In this document: positions 14,196-19,205 of the stretch, in pieces | Layout of the letters: the number at the start of each line of letters is the position of its first letter | Numbering within the stretch: position 1 is the first letter of the stretch | Source of the DNA: an uncultured virus (IMG/VR IMGVR_UViG_3300036781_000633) | Taxonomy: Duplodnaviria; Heunggongvirae; Uroviricota; Caudoviricetes | IMG/VR virus record: IMGVR_UViG_3300036781_000633 | DNA length: 21,877 bases | Reading direction: 5' to 3' (one strand) | Notes under the pieces: generated by a model | What the model was told of the DNA's origin: nothing | Database searches by the model: none | Seen by the model: only the letters and a program-made list of their open reading frames with translations | Program-made: the position numbers and the translations under genes

Positions 14196-14602
14196 AATTC
14201 GACCGCGAGATTCGCCTTCTGTACGGCGCTCACCAGATTTTTATCCGGCTGGGGTTCGACCCGGCGGCCCTCTACACCGGCATCAACTGGGGCCGGGTCA
14301 TCCTCGTCGCCGCTCCTGGATATCCCGGGCTCGCCGACCAGTCCGAGCTCGCGAAGGTAAAGCCGCGGTTCGTATTCACGGTCTGCCAGACCGAGATGTA
14401 CGAGGCGTGTTTCAACACGAAGTGGCTCCAGGCCATCGAGCAGATCCAGAGCCTTCGCAACGTCACCGTGGCAGAGCGCGATGCCATGGTCGCCGAGTTC
14501 GAGCGCGATCTCGACCGCGTAGGTCTCGTCATCGCGCTCTATGCGAAGGGCATGCTCCCCGGCCAATCCACGACGACCCCTCCATCGTCCGAGGCGTCGT
14601 GA
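14192..14602 (+). CDS. 136-aa hypothetical protein
   Basis: GAGGGAG RBS, GTGA coupling, and a TGATG link to the next gene. Confidence 0.7.
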   Translation: MKFDREIRLLYGAHQIFIRLGFDPAALYTGINWGRVILVAAPGYPGLADQSELAKVKPRFVFTVCQTEMYEACFNTKWLQAIEQIQSLRNVTVAERDAMVAEFERDLDRVGLVIALYAKGMLPGQSTTTPPSSEAS

Positions 14603-14880
14603 TGGGTGCCGCGTGGTTGGAGCGTCCCCAGGAATGGACGCAGCGGATGATCATCCTCACGCACGTCGCCGACCAGTGCGGCTACGAGAGCGTCATGGCC
14701 ATGCTCGAGGCGGCGACCTTCGACGTCTGCCCGGGCGTCTGCATGGGGTGCAAGACGGTCGTCGATAGCGTCGAGCCCGACACTCGCGACAACTGCTGCG
14801 AGGAGTGCCACGCGGCGGGGCTTGGATGGGATCTGTGCCGTACTGTCAAGAGCGTGCTCGTCATCGCGGAGTTGGTGTGA
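14602..14880 (+). CDS. 92-aa zinc-finger-like phage protein
   Basis: GAGG RBS. CPGVCMGC...VEPD...CCEEC...VKSVL. Confidence 0.75.
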   Translation: MGAAWLERPQEWTQRMIILTHVADQCGYESVMAMLEAATFDVCPGVCMGCKTVVDSVEPDTRDNCCEECHAAGLGWDLCRTVKSVLVIAELV

Positions 14881-15215
14881 AGCCGCGCAAGCAATGCAAG
14901 AAATGCCCGTGGAAGGTCGGCACCAACCCGAACGAGATCCCGAACGGGTACAGCGTCGGAAAACACTGCGACCTCAAGCGCACCATCGCCACTGCCGATA
15001 GTCCCGTGCTCGCAGACTCGCTCCACGTGATGGCGTGCCACGAGACGAGCGTTGGTCAGATTTTGCCGTGCGTCGGGTGGCTCGTGCACCAGATGGGACC
15101 CGGCAATAACTTCGCGCTCCGTCTGCGGGTGGTGACCGGGCAGATCGATGCCAACGTCCAGACCGTCGGTCCGCAACACGAGCGGTTCGAGGACACGCTG
15201 CCGAGGGACAAGTGA
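14877..15215 (+). CDS. 112-aa Cys-rich protein, DUF6283-like
   Basis: GGAG RBS and GTGA coupling. CKKCPWK...MACHET...CVGWL pattern. Confidence 0.7.
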   Translation: MKPRKQCKKCPWKVGTNPNEIPNGYSVGKHCDLKRTIATADSPVLADSLHVMACHETSVGQILPCVGWLVHQMGPGNNFALRLRVVTGQIDANVQTVGPQHERFEDTLPRDK

Positions 15216-16351
15216 ATGCCATCTACAACGAGATCGAACCGTTCGCATGCGACTGGCTCGAGGCGCTCATCGCCGGAGGTCACATCGCCGCCGGCCGCGT
15301 CGAACGGCGAAGCATCACCGAGCTTCGACCAATCGACGTTGCCGGGCCTGGACAGCGCCATTTCTTCGCCGGTATCGCCGGATGGTCTGCCGCCTGTCGA
15401 CTCGCTGGAGTCCCAGACGACGCCGACATCTGGACCGGCTCGTGCCCGTGTCAGCCGTTCTCGGACGCGGGCACGCGGAGCGGAGTACTCGACACTCGAC
15501 ATCTTTGGCCAGCATGGTTCGACCTCATCCGCGAGTGCCGACCTGCAGCGATCTTTGGAGAGCAAGTTGCGTCTCGAGATGGACTCGCGTGGCTCGACCT
15601 TGTTCGCGCTGACCTGGAACGATGCGGTTACGCCTTCGGGGCATCGGATCTGTGCGCTGCGGGCGTCGGATCCCCCCACCGACGACAGCGACTCTATTTC
15701 ATGGCCTACACCCGTGAAGGAGGACGCCCGTTCCTCGGCGAGACACGGATACATGATAGAGGGCAATGCCGGGACCACGTTGCTAGATGCGGTCCGGTTG
15801 GCGGCATGGCCGACAGCGAAGGTGAACGATGCCGAGCGGGGCGGATGCCTGGAACACATGGACGGTCGACGCTCGAATCTGAACGACTCGGTTCATCTAG
15901 CGAGTTGGCCGACGTCGCGAGCGACCGACGGATCGAACGGCTCGACGACGCTTCGCTCAGAGAACGGCATCGACCTGCCAGCCACGGCGGGACTGACGGG
16001 CTGGGCGACGCCGTCCGCGACGGACGGCAAGATCGCATCCAACCCGGGACAGAGACGCGGACAAACGCTCGAGAACTACCGGGCGATGAAGCGCAACATG
16101 AAGTCAGGCGCACGTATCGCGATCACCCATCCTTCGCTCCAGGCGCAACTCGTGGTTTCTGGGCGCGCCCTGACTGGCTCTTCTGTCGCGACGGGAAGTG
16201 GAGGCCAGCTGAACCCGGATCACAGCCGTTGGCTTATGGGGTTCCCGGTCGAGTGGGCCTCTTGCGGGGCTACGGCAACGGCATCGTCCCGGAGGTCGCG
16301 GCGTCATTCATCCGGGCAGCGCGCGCGGCGGTCGAGGAAACGCGACGCTGA
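15212..16351 (+). CDS. DNA cytosine-C5 methyltransferase, catalytic (alpha-type) polypeptide
   Basis: FFAGIAG (motif I), GSCPCQPFS (IV, catalytic Cys), FGEQV (VI), PHRRQRLYF (VIII) and LRGYGNGIVPEVA (X). No recognisable motif IX in this frame. Confidence 0.92.
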   Translation: MNAIYNEIEPFACDWLEALIAGGHIAAGRVERRSITELRPIDVAGPGQRHFFAGIAGWSAACRLAGVPDDADIWTGSCPCQPFSDAGTRSGVLDTRHLWPAWFDLIRECRPAAIFGEQVASRDGLAWLDLVRADLERCGYAFGASDLCAAGVGSPHRRQRLYFMAYTREGGRPFLGETRIHDRGQCRDHVARCGPVGGMADSEGERCRAGRMPGTHGRSTLESERLGSSSELADVASDRRIERLDDASLRERHRPASHGGTDGLGDAVRDGRQDRIQPGTETRTNARELPGDEAQHEVRRTYRDHPSFAPGATRGFWARPDWLFCRDGKWRPAEPGSQPLAYGVPGRVGLLRGYGNGIVPEVAASFIRAARAAVEETRR

Positions 16352-16358
16352 TCGGTAA
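15216..16358 (+). CDS. Overlapping +1-frame methyltransferase beta-type polypeptide (WPT repeats and motif IX); true start probably internal
   Basis: Open for 380 codons across the whole MTase gene. Four W(P/A)T repeats and LNPDHSRWLMGFPVEW, which matches C5-MTase motif IX. Confidence 0.75.
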   Translation: MPSTTRSNRSHATGSRRSSPEVTSPPAASNGEASPSFDQSTLPGLDSAISSPVSPDGLPPVDSLESQTTPTSGPARARVSRSRTRARGAEYSTLDIFGQHGSTSSASADLQRSLESKLRLEMDSRGSTLFALTWNDAVTPSGHRICALRASDPPTDDSDSISWPTPVKEDARSSARHGYMIEGNAGTTLLDAVRLAAWPTAKVNDAERGGCLEHMDGRRSNLNDSVHLASWPTSRATDGSNGSTTLRSENGIDLPATAGLTGWATPSATDGKIASNPGQRRGQTLENYRAMKRNMKSGARIAITHPSLQAQLVVSGRALTGSSVATGSGGQLNPDHSRWLMGFPVEWASCGATATASSRRSRRHSSGQRARRSRKRDADR

Positions 16359-16440
16359 GGCGGGATCGGCCCACGAATTGGCACTGGCTAGACGTTTGGC
16401 TTAGGGTGAACGAATTCTCTCCAACGAAAGGACTCCGGGT

Positions 16441-17490
16441 ATGACGACGACAGCAAGGGAGGTGGAACTCAAGGATCTCCATCTCGAGCACGCGATGTGG
16501 GCAAACCCACGCACGACGACAGGACTTGGCAGCGACGATCTCGACGACCTCGCGGCGTCGATCAAGGAACGCGGGATCTTGGTGCCGCTGGAGGTCTTGC
16601 GGGTCAAGAACGAGGACGGTGGCGTCATCGACCTGGTGGTCGACGGGCAGCGTCGGGTGCTCGCGGCGAAACTCGCCGGGTTCAAGGGCTCCGCGCCGAT
16701 CCCGGTGGTCGATGCGCGCGAGGACACGCTCGAGTTCAACTGGCACGAGAGTGACGGTGTGTTCCTCGACATGCTCAGTATCGCGGTACAGCGCGTCGGT
16801 CTCTCCAGCTTCGAGCTCAGCGAAGCGGCCGAGCGGCTCAAGAACCGCGGCAAGAACGGCGAGGAAATTGCCCGCGCGATCAACAAGTCGGCCTCCTGGG
16901 TGAGCCGCATGCTCAAGGCTCGAGCATCGGCCGACCCGAAGATCTTGGCGGCATGGAAGGCAGGCAAGCTGACCGACGAGGTGTTCAAGGATCTCTCTGA
17001 CGTCGCCACCGCGAAGCAGAGCGACGCGCTCGACGACTACCTGGGCGTGAAGAAAAGCGACCGGGGCGGTGCTCGCGCGATGGCCAAGGAGGCGAAGGCG
17101 AAGACCGTGAAGAACGGCCACGCCAAGCACAAGCCTGTGGTCTCCGGCGAACAGAAGACGCTCTTCGAAGACGACCACGCGGAAGCCAAGGCCAAGAAGA
17201 ACCAGCCGCCCCGCAAGGACTTCCTCGAGGAGCTCGTCGCGCTCTCCGAAAAGCGGACGCCGACCTCGGACTACGTCAAGGGCATCATGGACGGAGTCGG
17301 CTACACCCTCGGCACGAAACAGCTCGACGAGTTCTCGCCCGCCTGGGCGAAGTATGTCAACCGCGTCGGTGGCAGCGCGACAACGAGTTTTTCCTCGCCG
17401 AAAGCAAAGAAAGGCAAGGCCAAGGGCAAGATCTCCAAGCCCACCAAGGCTCGCAAGCCATCGAAGAAGTCTGCTAAAAAGAAACGGTGA
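16441..17490 (+). CDS. parB: ParB/RepB/Spo0J-family protein with HTH and Lys-rich tail
   Basis: AAGGA RBS. NPR...LAASIKERGILVPL...VDGQRRVLAA (ParB/Srx domain), EEIARAINKSASWVSRML (HTH) and a Lys-rich C-terminus. Confidence 0.85.
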   Translation: MTTTAREVELKDLHLEHAMWANPRTTTGLGSDDLDDLAASIKERGILVPLEVLRVKNEDGGVIDLVVDGQRRVLAAKLAGFKGSAPIPVVDAREDTLEFNWHESDGVFLDMLSIAVQRVGLSSFELSEAAERLKNRGKNGEEIARAINKSASWVSRMLKARASADPKILAAWKAGKLTDEVFKDLSDVATAKQSDALDDYLGVKKSDRGGARAMAKEAKAKTVKNGHAKHKPVVSGEQKTLFEDDHAEAKAKKNQPPRKDFLEELVALSEKRTPTSDYVKGIMDGVGYTLGTKQLDEFSPAWAKYVNRVGGSATTSFSSPKAKKGKAKGKISKPTKARKPSKKSAKKKR

Positions 17491-17747
17491 GCACGCGCCG
17501 TCGCCGGATGATGCCGCAAGGCGCCTGGCGTACGTGCACGAAGGACTGCGGGTACAAGACGTACACCGCCCACACCGGACCGCTCCCATGTCCGGTGCTG
17601 GGCTGTTTGGGCGAGCTCGGGTTGCCGCTAACGTGGCCCCATATCTGCTCGCACGGCCACTCCAGGGATGTGGAGGCGACCGATCTGCCTCGCCGGACGA
17701 TCCCGGAGGCGTTCTGTGAAGAGTGCCCACCTATCGTCGAAGGTTGA
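17487..17747 (+). CDS. 86-aa Cys-rich (zinc-binding) protein
   Basis: GTGA coupling. CTKDC, CPVLGC, CSHGH and CEEC motifs. Confidence 0.6.
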   Translation: MSTRRRRMMPQGAWRTCTKDCGYKTYTAHTGPLPCPVLGCLGELGLPLTWPHICSHGHSRDVEATDLPRRTIPEAFCEECPPIVEG

Positions 17748-17804
17748 TGCCCCGGGATCTGCACCCGGTAGCGCTGTCACACGCAGAGGTGATACTTCGG
17801 TGAC

Positions 17805-18053
17805 ATGGGAGCACTGAAAGACCTCTTCGATTCCGCGCACTCGATGTTCGCGGTCATCCTATCCATCGGTGCCGTCGTGCTCACTGCGTTGGGCAAGATG
17901 ACGACCGACCAGTTCATCACGTACAGCGAGTGGATCTACGGGATCTTCGCTGGCGCCACGGCGGGGATCACCGTCGCCGACAAGCTTGCCACTGGAAAGG
18001 TGGAGGCGGCCAAGGCCGCCGCCATCATCGCGTCCATGCCCAAGGCTGCGTAA
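17805..18053 (+). CDS. 82-aa two-TM membrane protein, holin-like
   Basis: Two hydrophobic segments (MFAVILSIGAVVLTALG and WIYGIFAGATAGITVA), upstream of a peptidase. Confidence 0.65.
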   Translation: MGALKDLFDSAHSMFAVILSIGAVVLTALGKMTTDQFITYSEWIYGIFAGATAGITVADKLATGKVEAAKAAAIIASMPKAA

Positions 18054-18063
18054 GGAGCCGCCC

Positions 18064-18441
18064 ATGTCTCGCATCATCGTTCCGCTGTCGCTGTTCGTGC
18101 TCACGTTTGTCATCTGCATTGGTCTCGTCGCCGTCCCGTCGTGCTCGACGCTAAAGGCGGATACGCCCGGCGATGTCGTCGACTGCACTGGGTCGAACCT
18201 CTCCGCGCTCGCGGCGCTCCTGAAGGGACAGTCCGAGGACGCGATTCTATCGGCGGCGGAGTCCGCTGGTTTGCAGATCGGCGGATGCATCATCGCCGAG
18301 CTCATCAACCAGTGGGAGGCCGGACACAAGGTCGGGGTGACCGCGACCGTGATCGCGGGCGATCCGCACGCGCTGATGGACTGGTTCCGCGCGAAGGTCG
18401 CGCCCGGGAAGACGTTCAAGACGACGGCGGGGGCGCGATGA
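18064..18441 (+). CDS. 125-aa putative lipoprotein
   Basis: AAGGAG RBS. Hydrophobic N-terminus ending VAVPSC. Confidence 0.7.
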   Translation: MSRIIVPLSLFVLTFVICIGLVAVPSCSTLKADTPGDVVDCTGSNLSALAALLKGQSEDAILSAAESAGLQIGGCIIAELINQWEAGHKVGVTATVIAGDPHALMDWFRAKVAPGKTFKTTAGAR

Positions 18442-19205
18442 TCGGGCTCCACGCGGGCGTCCGGCTCGGCAAGATGGCGCCTCGGTACGATCCGCGAACG
18501 CTCCTCATGGCGAGTTACGTCAAGCACGAGTTCATCCCGCCACCGCCCGACAAACGTTACTGGTCGGCGAAGGCCGCCTCCGACTGGGGGATGATGAAAA
18601 ACGACGTGCTGGGGGACTGCACGTGTGCGGCCATCGGACACCTGATCCAGGCGTGGACCGCGAACTCTACCACCGAGGTCACGATCTCCGATGACGACGT
18701 GGTGCGTCTGTATGAAGAGTTCTGCGGCTACAAGCCGGGCGATCCCGGCACCGATGAGGGCGGCGTCGAGCTCGACGTCCTCAATGGCTTCGTGAAGCAG
18801 GGTGCCGCCGGGCACAAGATCGACGGCTATGTCGCGCTCGAGCCGCACAACCACGACCACGTGCGCGCGTCCATCGACCTCTTCGGTGGCATCTACACCG
18901 GTGTGGCGCTCCCGCTTTCGGCGCAGGACCAGAAGGTATGGAGCGTCGTTCGTCACGCGCCGAACGCCACCCCGGGATCGTGGGGCGGTCACGCCATCGC
19001 CATCGTGGACTACGACAAGAGCGGGCTTGCGTGCGTGACCTGGGGCGCGCTCAAGCGCATGACCTGGCAGTGGTTCGATATGTATTGCGACGAGGCGTAC
19101 GCCATCCTCTCCCAGGATTGGGCGAACGCCGGACGCATGGCGCCGTCGGGCTTCGACTACGCCGCACTCACCGCCGATCTGGCCTCGCTGCGTCACGCGG
19201 GCTGA
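18438..19205 (+). CDS. Papain-like (C1-type) cysteine peptidase
   Basis: ATGA coupling. NDVLGDCTCAA (Cys), WGGHAIAIVDYD (His) and CVTWG (equivalent of NSWG). Confidence 0.8.
   Translation: MIGLHAGVRLGKMAPRYDPRTLLMASYVKHEFIPPPPDKRYWSAKAASDWGMMKNDVLGDCTCAAIGHLIQAWTANSTTEVTISDDDVVRLYEEFCGYKPGDPGTDEGGVELDVLNGFVKQGAAGHKIDGYVALEPHNHDHVRASIDLFGGIYTGVALPLSAQDQKVWSVVRHAPNATPGSWGGHAIAIVDYDKSGLACVTWGALKRMTWQWFDMYCDEAYAILSQDWANAGRMAPSGFDYAALTADLASLRHAG

Follow-up and report, generated by a model that had tools for sequence, protein, structure and literature searches.

A prophage gene open in two frames that probably encodes both chains of one DNA cytosine-5 methyltransferase

M.EcoHK31I is reportedly an alpha/beta DNA cytosine-5 (C5) methyltransferase, a description going back to Lee, Kam and Shaw in 1995, and M.AquI is a further enzyme of two chains, whose genes lie side by side. 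In the available portions of two papers (PMC2836561, PMC3404938), M.EcoHK31I of Escherichia coli HK31, which is specific for YGGCCR, is presented as an alpha chain plus a beta chain produced from another frame inside the alpha gene, both being needed for activity; beta is the smaller of the two, fully nested and containing only motif IX, its N-terminal part can largely be dispensed with, several internal start codons being usable, and the target-recognition domain (TRD) is predicted to lie in alpha. The available part of one of these papers describes M.AquI, specific for CYCGRG, as a two-chain C5-methyltransferase that is split within the variable region (PMC3404938). Here we analyse a gene of comparable layout in a stretch of 21,877 nucleotides, called the window throughout, which is deposited as IMG/VR record IMGVR_UViG_3300036781_000633 of an uncultured virus of the Caudoviricetes and for which a reading made earlier from the sequence alone had proposed a two-chain enzyme of the M.EcoHK31I kind. 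Positions 15212-16358 of the window probably encode the two chains of one DNA C5 methyltransferase, as in M.EcoHK31I; that the frames should instead be joined into a single chain by a double frameshift is unlikely.

Frames A and B are both open over one stretch of 1.1 kb, with exactly the coordinates that the sequence-only reading had given, 15212-16351 and 15216-16358, and the end of beta lies 7 nt past that of alpha. The window has a GC content of 64-65%, and GC at third codon positions is maximal in frame A at both ends of the gene and in frame B from ~15520 to 16180. The features of the locus are the following.

15212..16351, + strand: alpha open reading frame (ORF; frame A), 379 residues with a GTG start, the C5-methyltransferase catalytic chain (ORF list, PF00145, phrog_363, hhalign, Foldseek).
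15216..16358, + strand: beta ORF (frame B, +1 relative to A), 380 residues with an ATG start, the putative recognition chain, bearing the W-P-T-P modules and a motif IX-like block (ORF list, phrog_1008, phrog_31772, tblastn).
15203..15218, + strand: shared start region (GTGAATG), with a Shine-Dalgarno (SD)-like GAGGGA at 15203-15208, the alpha GTG at 15212-15214, the TGA of the upstream gene at 15213-15215 and the beta ATG at 15216-15218.
15212..15745, + strand: alpha residues 1-178, the folded catalytic (large) domain with motif order II-III-I-IV-VI-VIII, conserved in 78 relatives (AlphaFold2, abbreviated AF2; hhalign).
15746..16123, + strand: alpha residues 179-304, an unconserved linker predicted to be disordered, out-of-frame shadow of the beta modules (AF2, conservation).
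16142..16348, + strand: alpha residues 311-379, a conserved hairpin (GFW..DWLxCRDGKWRPxEPG..PL) followed by motif X and the C-terminal helix.
15501..15725, + strand: beta residues 96-170, a conserved helix and hairpin (L..SLESKL, GSTLFALTW, ALRAS) up to the first WPTP, over alpha motifs VI-VIII.
15702..16025, + strand: four beta modules of W-P-T-P type (WPTP at 15702, WPTA at 15807, WPTS at 15906, WATP at 16002), spaced by 32-35 residues.
16209..16256, + strand: the motif IX-like block of beta, LNPDHSRWLMGFPVEW, its most conserved block (0.89; hhalign).
14805..15215, + strand: upstream gene (DUF6283, phrog_18928), in the frame of beta, its stop codon lying inside GTGAATG.

In the explanation that we favour, alpha would constitute the catalytic large domain that binds S-adenosylmethionine, with motifs II, III, I, IV, VI and VIII in its N-terminal part and the hairpin, motif X and closing helix in its C-terminal part; the disordered linker of about 125 residues would join the two parts and have no function of its own. 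Beta would be the small DNA-recognition domain, made up of the helix-hairpin, the four W-P-T-P modules and motif IX. It would be translated, in the clade of the window from the ATG at 15216 by coupling to the upstream gene, and would dock on alpha and so complete the enzyme as in M.EcoHK31I, the W-P-T-P modules presumably setting the target of methylation. This proposal draws support from the conserved opening of frame B, from purifying selection acting on frame B in its own right, from internal SD and ATG signals in relatives and from the predicted disorder of the alpha middle.

How far does the opening of frame B exceed chance? The IMG/VR scan yielded 582 relatives, of which 80 loci were kept; 83 loci plus the window were examined, and since the SCPCQP search motif is missing from 3 of the 83, the scored set comprises 80 loci and the window, that is, 81 gene copies. 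Over A, all 81 copies have an open +1 frame of 161-463 codons, the +2 frame reaching only 37-159, and loci of 49-53% GC also keep the +1 frame open. Avoidance of stops was counted in 27 representatives of less than 62% identity, from codon 37 to 12 codons before the end: 18 of the 27 have no +1 stop, the expectation being 0.54, and the whole set contains 19 such stops versus 112 expected. Among the sequences with stops are L002, whose beta start lies some codons further on, as well as L022 and L070, in which alpha extends well beyond the beta stop; in no homologue examined is frame B interrupted upstream of the motif IX-like block. Searches of phage records with tblastn gave 444 matches for A and 198 for B, in the same places and in many hosts, those of B reaching down to E 6e-30. 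Both ORFs are present in Salmonella phage SEN5, Erwinia phage 59 and Xanthomonas phage PhiXhv-28, and the dual frame recurs in the more distant variants of E. coli phage XY2, Salmonella phage SalP219 and Rhodobacter phage RcKeef. Hence, given the stop avoidance of its relatives, the layout goes beyond chance for the family, though not for the window alone, and the dual-coding gene is real.

Conservation, taken as the majority-residue fraction in an alignment of 78 distinct relatives, is divided between the two frames. Frame A is conserved over residues 1-165 and 311-370 (0.56-0.83 in the latter segment), and over residues 171-310 it is unconserved and rich in gaps, with a majority fraction of 0.07-0.40; frame B is conserved at residues 81-170 (0.64-0.76 over 96-170), around 261-270 and at 311-360. 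Selection was assessed by holding the A protein alignment fixed, shuffling synonymous codons and comparing the identity in frame B with the resulting null: the identity exceeds the null with z 10-26 over A residues 91-165 and z 15-37 over A residues 311-350, and equals it (z about 0) over A residues 16-45. The identity of the +2 frame is also raised, as is to be expected because any synonymous constraint raises it, but it stays below that of B in every such block except A residues 351-360, where the two are equal. In 19 independent pairs of 72-93% identity, substitutions at alpha codon positions 1, 2 and 3 amount to 192, 133 and 588 in the N-terminal region and to 342, 239 and 207 from motif VIII to the CRDGK block, the peak in the middle of the gene thus falling on alpha position 1, which is the third position of beta; more divergent pairs dilute this signal, probably through module rearrangements. 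Because both frames are conserved and selected there, two stretches are dual-coding: alpha motifs VI-VIII over the beta helix-hairpin, and alpha GFW..CRDGKWRP..PL..RVGxLR over beta motif IX. The middle of the gene codes for beta only, and its first ~90 codons for alpha only.

The alpha chain carries the motifs that had been attributed to frame A, namely FFAGIAG (I, 15362-15382), SCPCQPFS (IV, 15440-15463), FGEQV (VI, 15554-15568), PHRRQR (VIII, 15674-15691) and GYGNGIV (X, 16268-16288), with no motif IX, and its middle is indeed rich in Arg and Gly: residues 171-310 consist of 17% R, 13% G, 9% D and 9% E, together 48%. Running the DNA_methylase model on both frames gave a match in A and none in B; the match of alpha to Pfam PF00145 is limited to residues 67-168 (E 2e-14; model positions 58-163 of 324). 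Over residues 1-376 alpha matches phrog_363 (E 2.8e-68), and its profile aligns with residues 72-177 of M.HhaI, which cover motifs IV, VI and VIII (E 2e-16). With 13 canonical C5 methyltransferases drawn from relatives of the host genome as the hhalign reference, alpha residues 3-165 fall on canonical columns 25-161 (Prob 99, E 7.5e-18), residues 3-45 aligning to motifs II-III and residues 46-66 to columns 1-21 (E 0.0068). Motif I (residues 51-57) therefore does not occupy its canonical N-terminal position and sits in an insert of 30 residues that separates motif III from motif IV. The resulting order along 15212-15463, II (YNEIEP), III (V-E-R-R-S-I), I (FFAGIAG) and IV (SCPCQPFS), agrees with the order of strands in the AF2 model, and we know of no description of such a non-circular permutation in C5 methyltransferases, although no search aimed at it was made. 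At the other end, residues 335-371 (putative motif X) lie on canonical columns 280-313 with E 0.097 only; across 67 sequences, G355 of this motif never varies and N356 is conserved to at least 90%.

The AF2 model of alpha, built with 67 sequences, reaches a predicted local distance difference test (pLDDT) score of 84-97 over residues 1-178, except for the catalytic loop at 81-87 and the block 151-160 (mean 60), and in Foldseek it matches M.HhaI (E 2e-8), M.HaeIII and DNMTs over ~169 columns, that is, over the large domain only. Alpha by itself does not fold completely: the 126 residues 179-304, where the recognition domain would be expected, have pLDDT below 50, whereas the hairpin at 321-333 is of middling pLDDT and the helix at 360-378 exceeds 90. 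In the part of alpha that runs from motif VIII to motif X, neither Pfam, conservation nor AF2 reveals an in-frame conserved target-recognition region or a motif IX. The length of the alpha linker follows the number of beta modules (r=0.72, n=30), and the alpha middle is the out-of-frame shadow of the W-P-T-P modules.

For beta, the matches are to phrog_1008 (E 5e-27, residues 77-356) and phrog_31772 (E 1.2e-24). Its sole hhalign hit to canonical C5 methyltransferases places residues 332-348 on the motif IX columns 268-284, and the hits of alpha and beta are complementary and colinear with a canonical single-chain enzyme. The sequence-only reading had regarded beta as the chain of motif IX, located from 16209; this part holds as a motif IX-like block, and it understated the chain, which also contains the whole conserved variable region with its W-P-T-P modules. 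Modelled alone, beta is confident only at residues 106-151 (pLDDT 79-88) and 331-350, and a fold search of this model over 48,161 chains found nothing above Z 3.5, a result that, given the poor model, says nothing about the fold of beta. NCBIfam has no match for beta, and its nearest clusters in the ESM Atlas are unnamed viral proteins only. The number of modules in the 78 relatives is 0-6 by a loose pattern that also counts the WASC of the window, and Tandem Repeats Finder detects no repeat at the DNA level under the modules. The third module (15906-15929, beta residues ~211-240) lies in columns filled by only 5-23% of the 78 relatives; from its distribution in the alignment it looks like a cassette gained in the lineage of the window.

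Most relatives provide frame B with translation signals of its own. In 67 of the 78, the +1 frame has an ATG close to alpha +91 or +109, and 41 of the 51 that have it near +109 show an SD-like 4-mer upstream; the usual site is AGGAG 8 nt before the ATG, embedded in the alpha codons for ERSIxDV (GAR AGG AGY ATH nnn GAT GTC). A frame-B stop often stands one or two codons ahead of this internal ATG, and in our judgement of the catalogue table most gene-called beta proteins begin at profile positions 60 and 66, matching the ATGs at +91 and +109. The stop-and-start arrangement GTGAATG is found in three of the 78 distinct family members, the window, L004 and L006; in the window it sets the beta ATG (15216) 4 nt after the alpha GTG (15212), straddling the TGA of the upstream gene. 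Other starts of frame B in the window are a TTG at residue 42, without an SD, and codons from residue 114 onwards, which would truncate the confident and conserved helix at 106-125; for these reasons 15216 is taken as the probable beta start. In the clade of the window both chains may be translated by coupling to the upstream gene. In L004, L005, L006 and L024 the upstream ORF likewise ends in a TGA that overlaps the alpha GTG.

Could the two frames instead yield a single chain? Two programmed frameshifts, from A to B (+1) after motif VIII and from B back to A (-1) between motifs IX and X, would produce the order I-VIII, TRD, IX, X, a possibility that the sequence-only reading had kept as its alternative. 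It would account for the best-conserved frame running A, B, A along the gene, and the joined order is colinear with canonical enzymes. However, conserved and selected segments of the two frames overlap, beta residues 96-170 lying over alpha motifs VI-VIII and alpha GFW..CRDGKWRP..PL..RVGxLR over beta motif IX, and a single chain would lose conserved sequence. The conserved alpha residues G343, R347, V348, L351 and R352, which precede GN, have their codons ahead of position 16256, where beta motif IX ends, so that no shift point keeps both; a shift after motif IX would leave ~5 residues from W to YGN, whereas the canonical tails in the hhalign comparison have 13-15 between the F/W after GFPxx and GN. 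There is no X_XXY_YYZ heptamer at 15640-15760 or 16150-16300 of the window, in a search that did not extend to +1-type sites, and the relatives give frame B its own SD and ATG, often just after a frame-B stop. Among the best 120 and the best 150 beta relatives, none is a fused single-chain form, as judged by the presence of a Pfam domain or of 150 or more additional N-terminal residues, and a review of frameshifting (PMC5009743) contains nothing on DNA methyltransferases. The overlap of conserved segments, the lack of a -1 heptamer and the separate starts make the double frameshift very unlikely.

A different possibility is that beta is a real but separate overprinted gene, acting for instance in DNA binding or anti-defence and not as a methyltransferase subunit. 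That neither Pfam nor the solved structures offer a significant match to it would suit this idea, as would the unnamed viral proteins that are its closest Atlas neighbours; against it, alpha is without exactly what the position of beta would supply, the conserved variable region and motif IX, the best and only canonical match of beta is to motif IX at the colinear place, both ORFs co-occur in every relative examined, and the PHROGs label of the beta family is DNA methyltransferase, which is an annotation and not a test. We regard a separate gene as unlikely, if somewhat less so than a frameshifted product. The last alternative, that frame B is untranslated and owes its opening to chance in GC-rich DNA or to constraint at the nucleotide level, gains from the many long spurious ORFs in the surrounding DNA and from the finding that, for the window alone, the +1 frame is free of stops in 11% of synonymous-codon shuffles of A (P=0.11); yet frame B is open at 49-53% GC and in the three distant phage variants, substitutions in mid-gene peak at its third codon position, and an embedded SD and ATG exist in most relatives, so that this alternative is extremely improbable. 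Sequencing error and a chance ORF were likewise rejected, on the evidence given for these alternatives.

Our preference for two chains of one methyltransferase needs to be qualified by several results that weigh against it. Taken by itself, the open frame B of the window is not significant. The window and its nearest relatives, L004 and L006, are without the usual internal AGGAG-ATG, and the putative start at 15216 is deduced from being among the only upstream start codons present. The match of beta to motif IX is statistically weak (E 0.22, Prob 0.3 in hhalign), and the motif is assigned by position and pattern, not by statistics. Frame B has no Pfam hit, PF00145 is found in 0 of 67 beta sequences, and the beta profile gives 0 hits at E<=10 against PDB sequences; beta alone folds poorly in AF2, with a mean pLDDT of 55.9. 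Its first ~95 residues, 65% of which are Ser, Pro, Thr, Arg or Ala, show no selection of their own. Lastly, both the translation of beta and its binding to alpha are inferred.

The family to which the gene belongs is very large. The beta profile matches 25,960 representative clusters at E<=1e-3, a number that falls to 8,889 at E<=1e-30, and, in the 90% clusters, 3,271 of 8,000 scored candidates. The expectation that gene callers would miss the second chain was mistaken, for frame B is often called, as these 25,960 clusters, phrog_1008 and GenBank records attest, and usually left unnamed: the best 120 beta relatives are all without a Pfam domain, and the few that their source names are called 'hypothetical protein'. 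PHROGs labels both phrog_363 and phrog_1008 as DNA methyltransferase. Xanthomonas phage PhiXhv-28 has both ORFs annotated (each 'DNA methyltransferase'), and Escherichia phage K1ind3 carries a 'putative C-specific methylase' and a 'putative Mte8-like protein', all of these being database labels only. No description of the protein was found in the literature on 'Mte8', nor a paper on a phage family-wide two-frame design, bioRxiv preprint supplements lying outside the search. In Gordonia phage Gmala1 (L086 979-1852) a C5 methyltransferase is annotated as two coding sequences, gp28 (180 residues) and gp29 (70 residues), 124 nt apart, and several Paenibacillus phages (rows H83-H88) show 'DNA methyltransferase (x2)'; these pairs may be further split or two-frame forms.

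As regards its genomic context, the window does not come from a free virus, as had been assumed, since it lies inside a bacterial contig (G000:C12:17708-39584, minus strand) of a 3.79-Mb assembly. An integrase is found ~2 kb past its 3' end (L106 = G000:C12:1-17707, 14462-15658), and a peptidase-like ORF and a 718-residue tail-fibre-like ORF 14-19 kb past its 5' end (L107 = G000:C12:39585-59584, 14226-18475); most likely, then, the element is a prophage, and it seems to span some 40 kb or more. Most ORFs of the window are unknown, and a DUF6283 gene lies upstream of the methyltransferase. Directly downstream, at 16441-17490 (+), is a gene for a ParB-like protein (PF02195 ParB_N, phrog_6218/1033), with an antisense ORF of 486 residues at 16270-17730 that looks like a GC-driven artefact. 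No restriction endonuclease is recognised beside the methyltransferase gene in the annotation of its neighbours, which makes its 'orphan' status plausible. A 171-residue ORF at L106 8600-9115 (-) matches phrog_111 'DNA methyltransferase' (E 3.7e-13); the integrase stands between it and the window, and it probably belongs to host DNA or to another element.

In evolutionary terms, the overlap could be a device for evolvability, a proposition that we put forward tentatively and consider doubtful: W-P-T-P cassettes of ~33 residues would be gained and lost among relatives, a turnover that would retarget methylation with catalysis left untouched, and in the clade of the window the two chains would be made in a fixed ratio. 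Alpha would tolerate the change of cassettes, the same DNA being read there as a disordered linker that follows their number, and the ratio would be fixed by termination-reinitiation at the single GTGAATG junction with the upstream gene. Should alpha and beta both be produced, this double-stranded DNA prophage would contain some 1.1 kb of overlapping coding sequence on one strand, an arrangement preserved in thousands of genes of phages and prophages; few dual-coding regions of prokaryotic viruses would then be as long or as widespread. The design of M.EcoHK31I, once a curiosity, would then be a common phage route to orphan cytosine methylases; the incomplete look of these genes to Pfam would be explained, and many unnamed 'hypothetical proteins' would acquire a function. 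Such a natural split enzyme with a modular recognition chain would bear on restriction escape and on engineered targeted methylases.

Compared with the systems described so far, the layout most likely represents a novel form of the design known from M.EcoHK31I, and it is ordinary within a very large and mostly unannotated phage family. As in M.EcoHK31I, a second chain is encoded in an alternative frame of the alpha gene, here conserved as an ORF, and the dispensable N-terminus that the available portions of the literature ascribe to M.EcoHK31I beta parallels the unconstrained beta N-terminus of our gene. Judged from the same portions, however, the beta of the window differs in being as long as alpha (380 versus 379 codons) and in ending 7 nt after it, and also in holding the only conserved variable region, the alpha counterpart being unconserved and predicted to be disordered. 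M.EcoHK31I alpha begins M-K-K-K-P-L-K-Q according to primers (PMC2836561 supplement), whereas the family of the window has M-x-A-Y-Y-N-E, and in the partial view of M.EcoHK31I beta residues 35-75 that the primer fragments of this supplement afford, none of the motifs of the window family is seen. Moreover, M.EcoHK31I is part of a restriction-modification system, unlike the window gene, beside which no endonuclease is seen. On this partial view M.EcoHK31I would be an analogue in design and a distant relative at most. In M.AquI, the second chain has part of the variable region together with motifs IX and X, and the available part of the source mentions no coding in an alternative frame (PMC3404938). 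With M.HhaI and M.HaeIII (PF00145) alpha shares motifs IV, VI and VIII and the fold of the large domain; in contrast to canonical C5 methyltransferases, in which motif I is N-terminal, it has this motif between III and IV and is without an in-frame TRD or motif IX. The ORFs of the window are members of phrog_363 (alpha type) and of phrog_1008 and phrog_31772 (beta type), with the same nested layout, and within this family the clade of the window would start beta at alpha +4, whereas other members do so at an internal SD and ATG.

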